NCBI GenBank assembly: GCA_024679065.1
Contig: JAGIQG010000006.1
Location: forward strand, 69,502,001-69,566,000
Direction: 5' to 3'
DNA length: 64,000 nt
DNA from: Sphyrna mokarran
Lineage: Eukaryota
Part shown: piece by piece, positions 912 to 40,722 of the stretch
How the letters are laid out: every line of letters begins with the position of its first letter
Position numbering within the stretch: position 1 is the stretch's first letter
Made by a program: the position numbers and the translations under genes
The notes under the pieces: generated by a model
The model's input: the letters and a program-made list of their open reading frames with translations, nothing else
What the model was told of the DNA's origin: nothing
Database searches by the model: none

Positions 912-2500
912 TATAGAACATAACAGCGCAGAACAGGCCCTTCAGCCCTCGATGTTGCACCGACCAATTAGGGAAAAGCAATGACCCTCCAACCTAAACC
1001 AACCTTTTCATCCATAAACTTATCTACTCACCTCTTAAACGCCACCAAACTTGGCGCATCTACAACTGCCGCAGGCAGGGCATTCCATACCCTAACCACC
1101 CTCTGGGTAAAGAACCTACCTCTGATATCCGTCCTATAACTACCACCCCTTAATTTAAAGCTACGTCCCCTCGTGCTAGCTTTCTCCATCCTAGGAAAAA
1201 GGCTATCACTGTCCACCCTATCTAAACCTCTAATCATCTTATATGTTTCAATAAGGTCTCCTCTTAGCCGCCTTCTTTCTAATGAAAACAACCTCAAATC
1301 CCTCAGCCTCTCTTCATAAGACCTGCCCTCCATACCAGGCAACATCCTGGTAAACCTCCTCTGTACCCTCTCCAATGCCTCCACATCTTTCTTATAATGC
1401 GGGGACCAGAACTGCACACAATACTCCAAGTGCGGCCGCACTAGAGTTTTGTACAGTTGCAACATGACGTTGCGGCTCCGAAATTCAATCCCCCTACCAA
1501 TAAAAGCTAAGACTCCATATGCCTTCTTAACAACCTTATCGACCTGATTGCCAACTTTCAGGGATCTATGCACATATACACCAAGATCCCTCTGTTCTTC
1601 AACACTATTAAGAGTCCTACCATTAGCCCTATACTCTACACATTTGTTATTCCTGCCAAAGTGAATTACCTCACACTTTTCCACATTAAACTCCATTTGC
1701 CACCTCTCGGCCCAGCTCTGCAACTTGTCCAAGTCTCTCTGCAAACTATAACACCCCTCTTCACTATCTACCACTCCTCCGACTTTAGTGTCATCCGCAA
1801 ATTTACTAATCCATCCTTCAATACCCTCATCCAGATCATTTATAAAAATTACAAACAGCAGGGGCCCCAAAACAGACCCCTGAGGTACACCACTTGTAAC
1901 CGAACTCCACGATGAATAATTTCCCTCAACCACCACCCTCTGTCTTCTATCTGCTAGCCAATTCCTAATCCAATTAGCTAAATCACCCTCAATCCCATAC
2001 ATCTGCATTTTCTGCAGAAGTCTTCCATGGGCCACCTTATCAAACGCCTTACTAAAGTCCATATATACCACATCAACCGCCTTACCCCCATCCACCTCTT
2101 TGGTCACTTTTTCAAAAAACTCAATAAGGTTAGTAAGGCACGACCTACCCTTCACAAAACCATGCTGACTATCCCCAATCAATTCATTTCTCTCTAAATA
2201 ACTATAAATCCTATCCCTAATAATTCTCTCCAATACTTTGCCCACAACAGAAGTAAGACTCACCGGCCTATAATTCCCCGGAAAGTCTCTATTCCCCTTC
2301 TTGAACAATGGGACCACATTCGCTATCCTCCAGTCTTTCGGCACTAAACCCATAACCAACAACGACCTGAAGATCAGAGCCAGAGGCTCTGCAATCACCT
2401 CTCTCGCCTCCCAGAGAATCCTAGGGTAAATCCCGTCCGGCCCAGGGGACTTATCTAACTTCAAACCCTCAAGAATATCTAGCACATCCTCCTTACTTGA
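912..2500 (-). mobile_element. CR1/HER1-like LINE, 5'-truncated, uninterrupted ORF2 RT segment
   Basis: 485-aa ORF 1028-2485 with KSPGPDG, NYRPVSLTS, YMDFSKAFDKV, SGVPQGSVLGP, KFADDTK, RPHLEYC; short 3' UTR ending in the GGGCTGAAGGGCCTGTT...TGTTCTAT tail. Confidence 0.96.
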
Positions 2501-2711
2501 TAACTATGGATCAGGCACAAGTGCTCATAAAAATATCTGAGGGGAGATGGTTGCCTCATAATAATGTCACTGGGCCAGTAATCCAAAGTTCATGCTATGG
2601 GTGGGCAGAACATGGGTTAAAATCCCACCACAAAATCCAAATTCAGTTATAAATCTGGAATTTAAAGTTAGTTTCAACAATGGGGTGACCTTGAAACTAT
2701 CCTTTATAAAA

Positions 2712-3030
2712 GCATAGAATCCTTAAAGTACATAAGGGTCCACTTAGCCCACTGAGCTTGCATCAACAACAAACCCACTCAGGCCCTATCCCTATAAACC
2801 CATATATTTACTCTACTAATCCCCTGAAACTAAAAGGTAATTTACCATGGTCGGTCCCCCTAAACTCCATATCCTTTGATGATAGGAGAGAACTGGAGTA
2901 CTCAGAGGAAACCCATGCAGACATAGGGAGAATGTGGAAATCCCACACAATCACCAAAGCCAGAATTGAATTTGGGTTCCTGGCACTGTAAGGCAGCAGT
3001 GCTAACCACTGTTCTATAGCACTGACACGG
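2712..3030 (-). mobile_element. V-SINE (HE1-like) with CR1-type tail
   Basis: tRNA-like head (GTGGTTAGCACTGCTGCCTTACAGTGCCAGG), V-domain (TTCTCCCTATGTCTGCATGGGTTTCCTC), ATTCTATG tail. Confidence 0.85.
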
Positions 3031-4282: not shown

Positions 4283-4609
4283 TCATAGAATAGAATCATA
4301 GAATCCCTACAGCGTAAAATCCCTAAAGCGTATTTGGCCCATTGAGTCAGCACTAATCAGAATCCCACTCGGACATTTTGCCCATAACCCTGCTTAATTA
4401 CTCTACTAATTCCCTGACACTAAGAGGCAATTTAACATGTCCAATCAACCTAACCCGCACACTTTTAGACTGTGGGAGGAAACCAAGGGCATTCAGAGGA
4501 AACCCATGTAGACACGGGGTGAATGTTTACACAGACAGTGACGCAAGCCAGGAATTGAATCTGGGTTCCTGTTGCTGAGAGTACTAACATTGTGCCACTG
4601 TGTCACCCT
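4283..4609 (-). mobile_element. V-SINE (HE1-like)
   Basis: Head GGGTGACACAGTGGCACAATG, V-domain, (ATTCTATG)n-like tail at ~4283-4305. Confidence 0.85.
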
Positions 4610-16867: not shown

Positions 16868-17910
16868 AAAGAGCAACAAAGCACGGGAAACAGGCCCTTC
16901 GGCCCAACGAGCCCGCGCCGCCGTCATAACTATATAGTAGCAAATCCATTATCCTATTATATTATTCCTACATAATAATATATTATTCCTAATATGGAAA
17001 ATTCTCACTATAGGGACAATTTGTTTCCCAATAAGCCTAAGAGCGAATTTTTGGGTTGTGGGAGGAAACCGGAGTGCCCGGAGAAAACCCACGCAACCAC
17101 GGGGAGAACGCGCAAACTCCCGCAGACACCGGCCCAATTCCAAGTGTCTGCACAGCCACATCGATAGTCTCTGAGCTGTCATGGTGCCCTTCAGATGGTC
17201 CACATAAAGCATTCATTTATGACACGAGGTACCAGGCAACCCATGAATCAACATCCAAGAGCCGTACCTGCACCACCTGCCGAATGCATGCTCAATGTTG
17301 GTCAAGTATGGACCGAATTACCTGTGGAAAAAAGCCGTAGTTAAACAGTCCTAATATATCCCTCTATCTGCATACCGCTCATGTGGCTGTCCAAGAGACC
17401 CTTAAACAGCCCCAGCGTGCCTGCTCCCACCACCTTACTCGGCAGTGCATTCCACACCCCCACTACCCTTTGTGTGAAAAACTGCCCTCTAATATTCGTC
17501 CTATACATAGCCCCCCTCACCCTATGGCCATGACCCCTCGTCCTATCCATTTCTAAAGGCGGAAAAAGTTTACCTCCATTTACTCTATCTATACCCCTTA
17601 TAATCTTATACACCTCTATGAGATCCCCTCTAAGCCGACGTCTTTCAAGGGAAAACAACCCCAGTCTATCTAATCGTTCCTCATAAGACAGTCCTTCCAT
17701 ACCAGGCAGCATCCTGGTAAACCTCCTCTGCACTCTCTCCAAGGACTCCACATCCTTCCGATAGTACGGCGACCAGAACTGGACGCAGTATTCCAAGTGA
17801 GGCCTAACCAACGTTCTATACAACTGCAACATCAAACTCCTACTCTTGTATTCTATACCCTTTTCTATGAAAGCTAACATACTATACGCCTTCTTTATCA
17901 CCTTCTCCAT
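16868..17910 (-). mobile_element. CR1 LINE 3' part with a ~470-nt 3' UTR containing an embedded V-SINE (copy A)
   Basis: Intact ORF2 C-terminus to the stop at 17341; UTR has V-domain GGAGTTTGCGCGTTCTCCCCGTGGTTGCGTGGGTTTTCTCCGGGCACTCCGGTTTCCTCCCACA; tail GTTGGGCCGAAGGGCCTGTTTCCCGTGCT followed by an A-run. Confidence 0.9.
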
Positions 17911-17920
17911 TTTGATCCAC

Positions 17921-18180
17921 ATGGGCAGGATAATGGTTAGCACTGCTGCCTCACAGCACCAGGGACCCAGGTTCAATTCCCAGCTCAGGTCACTGTCTGT
18001 GCAGAGTCTGCACATTCTCCCTGTGTCTGTGTGGGTTTCCTCCTCGAGTCTGAAAGACATGCTAAATTCTCCCTCAGTGTATCTGAACATGCACCGGAGT
18101 TTGCCGATCAGGGAATTTTCACAGTAATTTCATTGCAATGTTAATGTGAGCCTACTCATGACACTAATAAACTTTAAACA
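17921..18180 (+). mobile_element. V-SINE with alternative (non-CR1) tail
   Basis: tRNA head TGGTTAGCACTGCTGCCTCACAGCACCAGGGACCCAGGTTCAATTCC, partial V-domain, tail ...GTGAGCCTACTCATGACACTAATAAACTTTAAAC. Confidence 0.88.
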
Positions 18181-18989
18181 AAGCAGTCAAAATATGGAAA
18201 GCATCGCATCACGAAACTATTAAAGTTGAATCATCATGGATTTAAAAAGAAATTAGATAAACAAATTGTTAAAGAAATTAAGGAAAGGCACGTTATGTTA
18301 CTATATACTCCACACTTGTCTGTGAAACTGCTGTAAGTTAGACAGGCATATTCATTATTGTTCTCTGACTTCAAAAAATGAAGAAACAATCATCTTCTGA
18401 AATAAATCAAATAATGCAAAAAATACTACAATGCAAGTATTGAAAATAGTTTACTCTCTTTAAATTTTGTATAAAACAAATTCTTGGCAACTGCACAAAC
18501 ACAGGAAAAGATGCAGAATTGGCATCATTCATTTTCTATGCAGAATCTTGGGTTTTTCTTTCACTGTGAAATTTATTTTGTGTCTGGTAACACAAAATTC
18601 TAGTAAAATTGCTAACAACACATACCATTTACAACAAAACGAACAAATCAATTCATACAAACAAAAACTGAACACCAGCATGTAGAAATAAAAGCCACAT
18701 GCTCATAACTAAGTTAAACTTTCCATCTCTTCCCCTCCCCAAATAAAGCCTATGTTGTCATGCTTATGATTTATATACAAACTGCATGTCATATTTCTAC
18801 CCTTTTCTTTCAACCAAAAACTTAAAGTTAGTCATAACAGGTAATACTTCCACATTGTTTAGAAAGAGAAACTGCCAGAATTACCAGCTGACTGTCCAAT
18901 TTTATGTCGATGATGGAGTACACATTATCCCATCCTTATGCCAAGAATTGTTAAGACTCAATTAACATTAAAACAAACATTACTAATGT

Positions 18990-21216: not shown

Positions 21217-21393
21217 TCAGTTCTGCAGTTCCATCTCTATTTCTGCTGTCTCTTCTGGATCCTCACAATTCATTTCTTCAGCTATCCTCAGCTGTTCAAA
21301 GTCCTCAATCTCAGTCAACTCGACAACAGGCAAAGGAATTCTCCAAAATTGAAATGAGTTATATTGACAGGATACTTCATCCTGTGGTGCACT
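21217..21393 (-). CDS. C9orf40: C9orf40 orthologue, coding exon 2
   Basis: Acceptor TTCTTTTCCTTCCAG|; SAPQDEVSCQYNSFQFWRIPLPVVELTEIEDF...EIEMELQN* matches the C9orf40 hallmark YNTFQYWRNPLPPIDLADIED. Confidence 0.9.
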   Translation of the reverse strand, partial: SAPQDEVSCQYNSFQFWRIPLPVVELTEIEDFEQLRIAEEMNCEDPEETAEIEMELQN

Positions 21394-23660: not shown

Positions 23661-24089
23661 CTGTGCGGTCCCGCCGGGCAGGCTGCTGCCAGTCAAGGAG
23701 CGGCTGGCCCAAGGCTCCCCGGCATCAAGACCCCGGGTCTGAGGCCAGCTGCGGTTCCCGGGCTGGGCGCCGTTCGCGCCGCGGTCCCCGAGCTGGGCGT
23801 CGCTCGCGCCGCGGTCCCCGAGCTGGGCGTCGCTCGCGCCGCGGTCCCCGGGCTGGGCGCCGCTCGCGCCGCGGTCCCTGGACTGGGCGCCGCTCGCGCC
23901 GCGGTCCCCGGGATTGGTTCCGCGTCCTGCGTTCTCCAGCCTCTTGCAGGCGGGCTCCTGCAGCGCCTCCGCCTGCAGCTTCCTCTTGGCGCTGCTGTGG
24001 CGCCTCAGGCCCTGATAGTCCACAAACAGGGAAAGGAATCGCTTGCGAGGCTGGTAACACAAAAAGTCTTCCGCTTTCCTCTTCGACAT
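23661..24089 (-). CDS. C9orf40: C9orf40 orthologue, coding exon 1
   Basis: ATG at 24089; MSKRKAE...RKRFL...AKRKL...CKR resembles the N-terminus of C9orf40 (MAKRRAE...WKRLL...RKRKI...SKR); donor CAG|GTAAAG, phase 0; CpG island; adjacent to CARNMT1 as in human. Confidence 0.85.
23751..23912. repeat. 30-bp GC-rich coding minisatellite (5.4 units) in C9orf40 exon 1
   Basis: Units GCGGTCCCCGRGCTGGGCGYCGCTCGCGCC start at 23751, 23781, 23811, 23841, 23871 and 23901 (partial); encodes a 10-aa repeat like PGDRGASGAQ. Confidence 0.97.
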
Positions 24090-24281
24090 CAGCTACTCCA
24101 AGTCGCTGCACTCCGCTGAGCGCCAAATTCAAACCGCAGCCACCCCATCCCCCAGCGCTCCTCCTGCACTGAGACCACCAGGCAAAAGTTTCAACAAGAA
24201 GGTATGCTCGTCTCGGTTAATAACCACAAATAATATTGGACTGCCCCCCAAAGACCGGAGGCTCATATTACAGATGTTTAA

Positions 24282-24650
24282 AGATTATTTTGTTAGTGTC
24301 ACATTACATTAACACTGTAATGAAGTTACTGTGAAAATCCCCTAGTTGCCACACTCCAGCGCTTGTTCCTGTACAGTGAGGGAGAATTTAGCATGGCCAG
24401 TACACCTAACCAGCACGTCTTTTAGACTGTGAGGGGAAACCAGAGCACCTGGATGAGACCCACACAGACATGGGAAGAACATGCAGACTCAGCACAGAAA
24501 ATGACCTAAGCTGGGACTCAAACCCAGGTCCTTGGTGCTGTAAGGCAGCAGTGCTAACCATTGTGCCACTCTGGCCTGAATCCAGCATCTGTTTGGGCAC
24601 ACTGAAGGACAACTTAGCATGACCAATGCACCTAACCAGCACATCTTTCA
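24282..24650 (-). mobile_element. V-SINE with alternative tail, plus a duplicated partial body
   Basis: Head GTGGCACAATGGTTAGCACTGCTGCC ending ~24571, V-domain, tail as in 17921-18180; extra body fragment at 24575-24650. Confidence 0.85.
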
Positions 24651-25159: not shown

Positions 25160-25449
25160 ATTTGTTTATTTATCAGTGTCACAAGTAGGCTTACATCAAC
25201 ACTGCAATTAAGTTACTATGATAATCCCCTAGTCGTCACACTCCGGCACCTGTCTGGGTATATTGAGGGAGAATTTAGCATGGCCAATGCACCTAATCAA
25301 TCTTTTGGACAATGGGAGGAAACCGGAGCACCCGGAGGAAACCCACTCAGACACGGGGAGAACGTGCAGACTCCATACAGACAGTGACTTAAGCCGGAAT
25401 TGAACCTGTGAGGCAGCAGTGCTAGCCACTGTGCCACCATGCCACCCCT
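25160..25449 (-). mobile_element. V-SINE with alternative tail
   Basis: Head GGGTGGCATGGTGGCACAGTGGCTAGCAC, near-canonical V-domain, tail GTAAGCCTACTTGTGACACTGATAAATAAAC. Confidence 0.9.
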
Positions 25450-34423: not shown

Positions 34424-34564
34424 TCAACTGTTTTTTGGTGGAAAGCCATTTAGTGATTTTGAATGTGCAGGCTTTCTGGCTACAAAAAAGACGCAATCAT
34501 AAAGGTATTTTAACATGGATTGGTCATTTTCTGTGTACGTTGACGGAACAGAGCTTTTTTCCAC
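34424..34564 (-). CDS. CARNMT1: CARNMT1 exon 8 (last coding exon)
   Basis: Acceptor TTCTATTGCAG|; [46 protein letters not shown]; the eight exons sum to 1164 nt = 387 aa + stop. Confidence 0.95.
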
Positions 34565-36619
34565 CTGCAATAGAAAATAAAAATTAATTTTATCACAGTT
34601 CAGAATCATTTCTGAAATTAATTCTAAAAAATTTCAGAAGGACAAAATATTTACAACTTTAAATAAAAACTGAAAATTCACCATTTTATTTCTCTATAGA
34701 AAAGCTAATATTTGTCTTTTTTCTTTTCACATGATTCTTTATGCATCTTTTCTTAAGCAGGTAATTTTCCAGAAGATTGGAAGCTATTTATTTACACGAA
34801 TATGTTCTGTGGCATGCTGTTCATGGCTTTTATTTTTTCTACTATAAATTAACCTCCTTCAATTGTTTTTGTTGACTATTTCTTATTTTACTTTTCAGAT
34901 ATCTGGTTTTATAATTTTTCTTCCTCGTTATTTTAGCTCTAATGCCCAATATTTATTTCCAATCTTGTCTGATCAAATTTTATTCTGCATGGAAAAAGAC
35001 TGTTTTCATCTCCTATACAAAAGAAACACTAGTTCTCAACACTTTCTGCTAGACCCATCATTCTTGATACCTTTCCCAAGTTTGTAATAGCTGAAAAGTA
35101 GAAAGATTGATATTATACTCAAGAGTACAACTACAATAATAACATTAAATTTCTAGGCACTAATAATTTAAACGAAAGTTTGAAAATACTCCAAACACAG
35201 AAAAATAAAGTAGATGGTTTAATTTTTCTTCATGGACATATTGAAGAATAGTGGTCAGATTCAATAAGGCCAGAGATTCATGATAATTAATTCATTAAAA
35301 GATAATAAACATTTAGTATATTTTCCACTAATAATCTCTGAAGCAAAAAGCAGAAATTTATTCAAGCATGTTTCTGGAGAAAAACAGGATTAATTAATAA
35401 GGCAAGGGATAATCAAGAACAGCACAAAAGTTGGGCATGCTTATAATGCCGAAAACCTTTCTCTTCATAAAATTTCCTATCCTCTGAAATATAGGGATAA
35501 ATATTGTGATGGAGGAAATATTAAGATGTTTAGCCAAATTAAATACATTCCAGGCTGCTAAATTATGCAAGAGAAGAAACAGTAGAGACTCTGACCATCA
35601 TTTTCCAATCCTTGCCGTCTATAGGCAGGGTGCTGGTGGAAAAAAGGACAGTTAATATTATGCACCAACTTTTTGATGAGAATATTTTTGCATATTTTGT
35701 ACCTAATTATGTTCACAAGTTCCAGGCAGATTCCCTTTGAACATTCTCCACAGCCTCATGGATATCAAGATGACAAACTGGTAAATATCTTCAAACTAGT
35801 TATCAGAAGTTCTTAAATTTAAATCAGTTATCTGGTGGGAACATGATGGCATATTGATATTTGTCAGGCTAATTTTTTGGGGACATGTTCAAATTCCTTC
35901 ACTGGAGCTGATGGAATTTGAAATTCAATTAACAAAAACCTGGAATTGAAAACTAGTCTCAAGAATGCTGACCATGGGTAGCATTTGCACAGAATGCTGG
36001 CTGGTGTGGGAAATTCAGAGTGTAAGCTTTCCAACTTCATGGCTGAGTTTTCTTTCAGATTCTCTGGGCACCTGTGCACAGAAAATTTGGGGGCATGGTT
36101 TCCACTGTCATGCTGGCAGGACATAGCCTGATAGAGCCAGCACCTTTGGCCCTATAGAGATTGGGTGGCACCTTTAAATCTCAGTTAAAACAAAACTCAC
36201 GGACATGGGGGAAATTCCCTACAAGCACTCAGGCAGCAGTCCCCAGCCACCCACCTAAAAAAGCAGGGCTCCCAGAAGGCCTCTGGTGCTCCAACTGTCA
36301 GGTAGGCAATGCCAGACAGTGCCTTGCCAGGGGTATATCCTTCTTCCTCCAGGGATTATACTTTGCATCTCTGGCAGATTCCCTCAACTGCTTCTCGTTT
36401 TTCAATACCTGTTGTAAATCTTGCTAAGATGGGAACCCCTTTAATTATGTTTAATTTTATTTAAGTACATTTAAATGAGGCAGGAACGTACGTCACTGGC
36501 AAGCAACAGGGAAAAATCAGAAAATGAGATCTCACCAGTAATAATCTCATTTCCAACCCTCGCGAGATGTGAGCAACTGCCTCACAATGCCAGGAACCCA
36601 TGTTCTATTCTGGGTAAAT

Positions 36620-39126: not shown

Positions 39127-39870
39127 ATAGAATAGAATAAAAAAGAGCAAAACAGCATGGGAAACAGGCCCTTTGGCCCAACAAGCCCGCGCCGCCACCT
39201 CGATGTTCCCACTTTTACCCGTGATCCCTGTCTATGTTTATAGATCTATGCATCAAAATCAAATTTGAGACAATTTAGAGAGAATTTGTTCTACCAATCA
39301 GCCTAAGAGCACACCTTTGGGATGTGGGAAGAAACCAGAACACCCAGAGAAAACCCACAGAAGCACAGGGAGAATGCGCAAACTCCCACAGACACAGGCC
39401 CAAATCCATGTATCTGCATAGCACAGCAATAGTCACTGAGCGGTCGTGTTGCCCATTAAATGGTCTAGGTCAAGCATACACTAACGATGTGAAGCATCGT
39501 TAGGATACTCTCGAAAAATTCCAAAATTCTCATGACCCATCGCGTGTATGCCCCTTGTTAGGCAACAAGACGTATCAAAGTACCTGTAGGATAAAACAAA
39601 TACATCAATATCAACTATTTACTATTTGGGAGCCAGGGAACTCCCAAGGCTCATGATCCCTATTTTAAATCAGTTTTCTATATCCTCCATTCCCATTCTG
39701 TTCATGTGCTCATCTAAGTATCTCTTAAATAACTCCAGAGTGCCTGCCTCCACCACTTTACTTGGCAGCACGTTCCATACCCCCACCACCCTCTGTGTGA
39801 AAAAACTCCCTCTAAGCATCCAAATTATACCTTTTACCCCCCTCACCCTAAGCCCGTGACCCCTCTTGTG
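39127..39870 (-). mobile_element. CR1 LINE 3' end with a long 3' UTR containing an embedded V-SINE (copy B), in CARNMT1 intron 7
   Basis: FFTQRVVGVWNVLPSKVVEAG...YLDEHMN; V-domain at ~39295-39395; tail GGCGGCGCGGGCTTGTTGGGCCAAAGGGCCTGTTTCCCATGCT nearly identical to copy A. Confidence 0.88.
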
Positions 39871-40618: not shown

Positions 40619-40722
40619 CTCAATTTTGAATCCATATTGAAGTATGCAATGTCTGATGTCTTCATAACTCAGTTCTATTGACTTTTCGTTTGCCATATTC
40701 TCAAAATGATACAGCAACGGAC
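40619..40722 (-). CDS. CARNMT1: CARNMT1 exon 7
   Basis: Acceptor TTTCTCCTAG|, donor GAG|GTAAGA; [35 protein letters not shown]; 104 nt. Confidence 0.96.

Follow-up and report, generated by a model that had tools for sequence, protein, structure and literature searches.

A candidate composite CR1 element with a SINE-like block and a possibly cryptic splice-like motif behind ORF2 in Sphyrna mokarran

The window, by which we mean the whole analysed stretch of 64,000 nucleotides, contains many CR1 LINE fragments and SINEs, as well as two host genes on its minus strand. The first, CARNMT1, spans 34424–58167 (minus strand), with three exons that match the Pfam family CARME and two more that were recognized by translation only. 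Its last coding exon (34424–34564; true acceptor ending at 34565) matched CARME with E = 8.7e-5, which falls short of the cut-off for whole proteins, as a fragment would, and the exon on the other side of the last intron (40619–40722, minus strand) did so with E = 1e-9. The second gene has its last coding exon at 21218–21393 (minus strand), which carries a WRNPLPNID domain (PF15017, E = 7.9e-6) and which we take to belong to a C9orf40-like gene; its probable first exon, at 23664–24092 (minus strand), is GC-rich, contains an in-frame 30-nt tandem repeat, and had no Pfam match. On the same strand lie the two repeat copies considered here: copy A, which starts ~3.3 kb downstream of the stop of the WRNPLPNID-domain gene, past seven poly(A)-like hexamers and not within an identified intron, and copy B, which sits in sense within the last CARNMT1 intron (40618–34565, 6 kb). 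A stand-alone SINE (17930–18182, plus strand) lies head to head with copy A, adjoining it at the truncated 5′ end.

Copies A and B share one layout, in which the end of ORF2 is followed in turn by a spacer, a block of 60 nt, the SINE-like central block, a middle segment, and the tail; the A–B identities of these six parts are, in that order, 73, 54.5, 79, 75, 46, and 91%. In copy A (minus strand throughout), a 5′-truncated but open 3′ part of CR1 ORF2 (17344–17921, 5′ limit approximate; assigned by identity to a CR1 frame) ends in a stop codon at 17341–17343, and is followed by a spacer that folds moderately (17198–17316; z = −1.7), a conserved block that occupies the place of a SINE head but lacks a B box (17140–17197), a SINE-like, V-domain-like central block together with the part that follows it (17010–17139, by SINE match), the poorly conserved middle segment (16925–17009), and a CR1-type 3′ tail (16868–16924). 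Copy B (likewise minus strand) has the 3′ end of ORF2 in a frameshifted state (39668–39865, identity to copy A at the DNA level) and, because of this frameshift, its stop was placed by alignment, at a TAA opposite the copy A stop (39665–39667). Some 60 nt without a counterpart in A, including a hairpin, then lie between this presumed stop and the motif described below (39606–39664), followed by a spacer that also folds (39463–39578; z = −3.1), the conserved head-position block with the V-domain-like block (39276–39462; A–B comparison and SINE match), and a CR1-type 3′ tail (39142–39195). The resulting 3′ untranslated region (UTR) of the composite measures 470–520 nt, compared with ~100–150 nt at the ordinary CR1 ends of the window.

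The frame of copy A was 71% identical over 171 amino acids to an RVT_1-bearing CR1 frame at 1028–2503 (minus strand), copy A itself is cut off before the RVT_1 domain and gave no Pfam match. Among named relatives of its protein, identities were 55–62% for sharks and rays and 43–56% for birds and turtles. A profile built from eight ordinary CR1 ends in the window matched both tails with E ~1e-5 (2.5e-5 for copy A, 1.3e-5 for copy B). By their ORF2 reverse transcriptase frame and their 3′ tail, A and B would both fall within the CR1 group. At the protein level, P0016 (90%), P0099, and P0002 represent related subfamilies that stop at about the same position as copy A, and a protein search for longer relatives that read through the ORF2 stop returned four matches, none of which did so. 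CpG retention was 0.71 in copy A, 0.46 in copy B, and 0.27 in the window; copy A is therefore probably the younger of the two. The fragment at 1028–2503, for its part, is open over 491 codons and has a short, ordinary 3′ end.

The SINE-like block as a whole (17010–17197 in A, 39276–39462 in B, minus strand) is 75–81% identical between the copies, like the ORF2 end, as against 46–55% for its flanks. The 60-nt block and central domain of A and B were 81% alike, versus 56–69% when compared with seven stand-alone SINEs, and the two copies share 36 differences from these SINEs among 145 clear-majority columns. Together, the shared layout, the mutual closeness, and the shared differences point to an amplified composite family rather than to two nested insertions; the block was joined to ORF2 in both copies and did not occur in them as an independent short element. 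The central block of copy A matched a SINE near 25313–25374 with 87% identity over 62 nt (E = 4e-16), and the central block of both copies may be a V-domain, by comparison with the window's own stand-alone SINEs. A B box could be matched at best at 6 of 11 positions in A and B, compared with 10–11 of 11 in four stand-alone SINEs, and ARAGORN found no tRNA genes; lacking a B box, the embedded block could presumably not be transcribed by polymerase III. The heads of A and B, considered without the central block, showed no significant likeness to SINE heads (243, 466, 296, and 370 of 2000 shuffles); derivation of the 60-nt block from a tRNA is plausible by its position but not significant in these tests. 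If this block has another source than a tRNA, the central domain could have belonged to the composite LINE from the outset instead of having been captured. At the place of the SINE B box, both copies have an 11-bp hairpin (~17120–17152 and 39388–39417, minus strand). The stand-alone SINEs of the window have similar heads and centers and come with two tails, one at 24275–24569, 25161–25445, and 17930–18182 and the other at 2715–3012 and 4300–4605. Since the tails are 91% identical, the 45% divergence of the spacers can owe little to decay after insertion; from these two copies, it would seem that the spacer drifted in active lineages while the SINE-like part held.

Behind ORF2, both copies carry a splice-like motif that a first-pass annotation had singled out, and its description of a CAG|GTA preceded by a pyrimidine tract on the minus strand was borne out. 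In copy A (17317–17345) the AG ends at 17322 and the first base after it is 17321, and in copy B (39579–39605) the AG ends at 39584 and is followed by 39583. Each site has 10 pyrimidines in the 12 positions from −16 to −5, an upstream AG-free zone (26 nt in A, 28 nt in B), and a branch-like word of the form YTNAY upstream of the AG. We judged acceptors by a simple rule that combines exactly these features (a YAG, a pyrimidine tract, an AG-free zone, and a branch-like word), not by a trained scorer: the sites of copies A and B have all four, as do four of six host acceptors. Scored at nine positions against the donor consensus, the same sites also resemble donors, with 8/9 in copy A and 7/9 in copy B; for comparison, three donors of the host genes reach 8, 7, and 7. 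Sites with a donor score of at least 8/9 number 42 in 128 kb (both strands of the window).

The placement of the motif differs between the copies. It had been said to lie just after the stop in both, which is the case in copy A, at 19 nt, but not in copy B, at 81 nt from the stop located by alignment. The three phases after the AG close at 9, 5, and 0 codons in copy A, in line with the early closure of all three frames noted earlier, which for this copy supports the claim that the segment is not a coding exon; in copy B they close at 2, 7, and 33 codons. The branch-like word of copy A overlaps the ORF2 stop codon and aligns with the stop region of copy B, so the branch-like word of copy B, found at the right distance although the upstream sequence differs from that of copy A, is not its homologue. 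Words of this kind occurred at 55 of 138 comparable sites.

The spacers around the motif, which the annotation had regarded as diverged flanks, turned out to be homologous: they are identical at 54.5% of 140 columns, and their local alignment score was reached by none of 1000 shuffles, whether the motif was included or removed. The motif was thus inherited and did not arise twice independently, and the implied argument from a motif kept between diverged flanks is weaker than stated. Its 7-nt identical run is the longest in the otherwise diverged spacer, but identical runs of at least 7 columns appeared in 46% of 5000 shuffles of the spacer columns (P = 0.46). A search for YYYYNYYYNCAGGTA with one mismatch found 9 matches in the window versus 7.5 expected, a count that 29 of 100 shuffles reached. 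Fifty-five sites in 128 kb (both strands) conform to the full CAG acceptor rule; with CAG|GTA required, copies A and B are the only two full-rule sites in the 128 kb.

A second set of calculations gave lower figures. The chance that a full acceptor occurs within 140 nt is 0.11 and that of its retention at a neutral divergence of 36–45% is 0.07–0.03, which gives a joint neutral chance of ~0.003–0.008 for a shared full acceptor, under rules set after the sites had been seen and uncorrected for the many motifs that could have been flagged. Under equally post hoc variants of the rule, the joint chance was 0.04–0.07 for a lenient version and ~0.0005–0.001 with CAG|GT required. The chance tests on the motif disagree; we take the low joint probability as suggestive, because the rule was fixed post hoc and the spacer has not diverged evenly along its length. 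We put the probability that the motif is a selected splice signal, of whatever kind, at about one in three.

Common descent, a common layout, a missing B box, and uneven conservation characterize the two copies. The explanation that we prefer, with a probability of roughly 0.6 for the whole of it, is that A and B are 5′-truncated members of a single composite CR1 family, each from a different, diverged subfamily, and that the motif is a cryptic splice-like site carried in its 3′ UTR. The element would consist of ORF2 followed by a 3′ UTR of spacer, promoter-less SINE-like block, and ordinary CR1 tail, and, from what is known of CR1, its reverse transcriptase would copy the whole RNA starting from the tail. 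The CAG|GTA site would have been present in the common ancestor and passed to both subfamily lines without a selected role for the element, perhaps as a relic of a genomic flank that may have been captured when transcription of a CR1 continued into a SINE downstream, whose tail the element then took over, or else by a template switch. The spliceosome would normally ignore the site, as it presumably does with many like sites in the window.

Several observations argue for this cryptic-site reading: the homology of the spacers, the unremarkable 7-nt run, the difference in distance from the stop, and the branch-like words that are not homologous, as well as the abundance of full CAG-rule sites, the near-expected count of pattern matches, and the unspliced state of both copies. 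It is further favored by the persistence of copy B in sense within CARNMT1 and by the lack of a common partner site, since no donor of 7/9 and no acceptor with Y of at least 8 was found at the same place downstream in A and B. Against it stand the fact that the motif contains the longest identical run of the spacer, the presence of all four acceptor features in both copies, the lack of any other full-rule CAG|GTA site in the 128 kb, and the low joint chance, and the branch-like word of copy B could be a compensation. With two copies, the power is low in both directions.

A functional acceptor, the possibility raised by the first-pass annotation, would be joined to a donor located either in the 5′ UTR or behind ORF1, such that ORF2 is removed from the RNA; we consider this unlikely. 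The site lies right behind ORF2, where it would be needed, with its features present in both subfamilies at a low neutral probability, and the embedded block without B box would presumably yield no polymerase III product of its own. The spliced product would keep the SINE-like block and the tail and could serve, in a joint proposal that is just as doubtful, either as a source of ORF1 protein or as a SINE-like passenger mobilized in trans. ORF1-only CR1 derivatives are described, Ag-Sponge being one (PMC5786205). However, in both copies the sequence passes from ORF2 into the spacer without a break, and both therefore derive from unspliced RNA: neither of the two in the window starts at the acceptor or joins it to 5′ LINE sequence, a weak count at n = 2, and the window contains no 5′ end of the element, so that no donor can be named. 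By blastn, the spacer had no match elsewhere in the window. Pattern scans for further copies found no loci in viral, genome, or metagenome contigs, and protein-led scans gave 80 metagenome loci, 11 genome-contig loci, and no viral ones; none of these 91 loci matched either 3′ UTR, apart from two chance hits of 15–19 nt. Genome records of bacteria and archaea include small contigs with CR1-like animal sequence (L081–L091), which is most likely contamination.

Known derivatives offer both a model for splicing and a different route. SpIREs, the spliced retrocopies of L1 (PMC5860796), likewise come from a LINE with splice signals and are a model for what the annotation proposed, but their junctions, demonstrated there in genomic copies, fall within the 5′ UTR or within ORF1, whereas the present site lies behind ORF2 and neither of the two copies is spliced; the same source reports spliced L1 RNAs as dead ends. 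Ag-Sponge, HAL1, and Persaeus (PMC5786205, PMC6740152) would resemble the predicted splicing product in combining a 5′ part with a 3′ UTR, but these sources ascribe them to internal deletion, for the bipartite CR1 derivatives at microhomologies (PMC6740152, whose main text nowhere mentions splicing), and no such element was found in the window. Were splicing to occur, a LINE would become a nonautonomous element by splicing and not by deletion; in the unlikely case that the acceptor functions, this CR1 lineage would generate its own polymerase II–driven, SINE-like passenger or an ORF1-only message, with the central domain acting within LINE RNA.

The motif could instead act as a donor, with a 3′ UTR intron that begins at the GTA and removes spacer sequence, an option that its scores of 8/9 and 7/9 allow but that we regard as improbable. 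No good common acceptor lies downstream inside the element, both genomic copies keep the supposed intron, and the pyrimidine tract would be left unexplained. Exon junctions more than 50–55 nt past a stop codon expose a message to decay, and the junction of copy B, 81 nt past its stop, should trigger it.

The recursive reading, also put forward in the annotation, combines both functions: use of the acceptor would form a new donor, so that a sense insertion would be excised stepwise, in two rounds, and remain harmless. It agrees with the juxtaposition of AG and a donor-like GT in both copies, as at ratchet points (PMC8605326), and copy A has a candidate cryptic exon of 54 nt, ending at a donor of 7/9, close to the ~50 nt given for a recursive-splicing cryptic exon in that source. 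The downstream donor is near only in A, however, as copy B has none of 7/9 until 269 nt, so that the two lack a common cryptic-exon donor, and the donor formed with the CARNMT1 exon would reach 6/9. The intron around copy B is also short, at 6 kb, compared with the long introns of the nine suppressed mammalian sites cited in PMC8605326. The element would also gain nothing over having no site at all; we find this reading highly improbable.

The positions of the copies bear on yet another proposal, namely that insertions in sense trap upstream host exons by splicing them onto the spacer, block, and tail. Host-exon trapping of this kind has been described for SVA elements. The element would gain a borrowed promoter for its tail, and the CR1 enzyme would copy host exons, a joint scenario that, like the trap itself, seems very unlikely to us. 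Both copies are on the strand of the neighboring host genes, and within the CARNMT1 span, where five of seven reverse transcriptase–like repeat fragments are antisense, copy B is one of the two in sense. Two copies on one strand have a probability of 0.25, though; we saw no host-exon chimera, and copy A lies past the poly(A)-like hexamers. Upstream of copy B, the CARNMT1 exon at 40619–40722 ends in a phase-0 donor 1035 nt before the AG of that copy, and use of the site after it is predicted to add two codons and then a stop, at the loss of the last 46 residues of CARNMT1. That copy B persists in the intron despite this risk of truncation suggests that the site is mostly ignored there.

If the motif is passive, it is ordinary in itself, and the carrier matters more. 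The carrier is also the firmer result: what the alignments indicate is a CR1 lineage with a ~500-nt 3′ UTR that holds a SINE-like domain without a B box. A SINE-like block thus sits in the 3′ UTR of a LINE without a promoter and is held, it seems, as strongly as coding sequence, and the composite CR1 offers a setting in which to consider a role of the block in RNA stability or copying. BovB LINEs, which acquired fragments of SINEs or CR1 at their termini, are alike in being a LINE lineage that amplifies with a captured SINE-like piece, but belong to another clade. The labels HE1 and HER1 for sequences of the window are our assumption. If they apply, the composite resembles the HER1/HE1 system in its CR1-type ORF2 end and tail and in a central block similar to the one in the stand-alone SINEs of the window; it differs in that the LINE and SINE-like parts form one amplified unit, with a 470–520-nt UTR and without a B box. 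The CR1 LINE HER1 and the SINE HE1 of sharks and rays are listed as a partner pair (PMC3747384), and HE1 is classed as a V-SINE (PMC4824008). According to PMC5786205, it is not known where the widely conserved central domains of SINEs come from. A literature search at the level of titles and abstract openings, with repeat databases and the HE1/HER1 and V-SINE papers outside its scope, found no CR1 with a SINE central domain or with a 3′ UTR splice site; the composite CR1 is probably uncatalogued, although it may stand in a catalogue already.

The spacers of A and B share a long helix in part of their predicted fold. In two comparisons, only 11 and 13 of 400 shuffles had a better consensus fold energy, where a coding control reached 36 of 400, but compensatory pairs were not above shuffles (319 and 167 of 400). 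These predictions indicate a conserved spacer fold at most weakly. Rfam gave nothing at gathering score and, for the two spacers, one chance match each (E = 6–8), no credible match, and we conclude that they contain no known ribozyme or other RNA family. The idea that a hairpin hides the site in copy B was dropped, as true acceptors are also predicted to be paired. An origin of the motif as a remnant of an ordinary CR1 UTR was rejected after 10 nonsignificant pairwise tests (36–458 of 500) and a profile search with no matches; a profile search for a second-SINE remnant also returned none, but it missed the heads too and is uninformative on that origin. To read the motif in other copies, the frame that covers it on the reverse strand was used as a protein query; one search gave no matches, and another gave four, confined to query residues 1–34, that seem unrelated. 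The peptide of copy A over the motif has what we believe to be a likeness to the C-terminus of another LINE, but as a remnant of one it was rejected, being not kept in B and having no second match in the window. In the UTR of copy B (39463–39664, minus strand), there are several near-perfect hairpins of 8–9 bp, one of them inside the ~60 nt that are absent from A.
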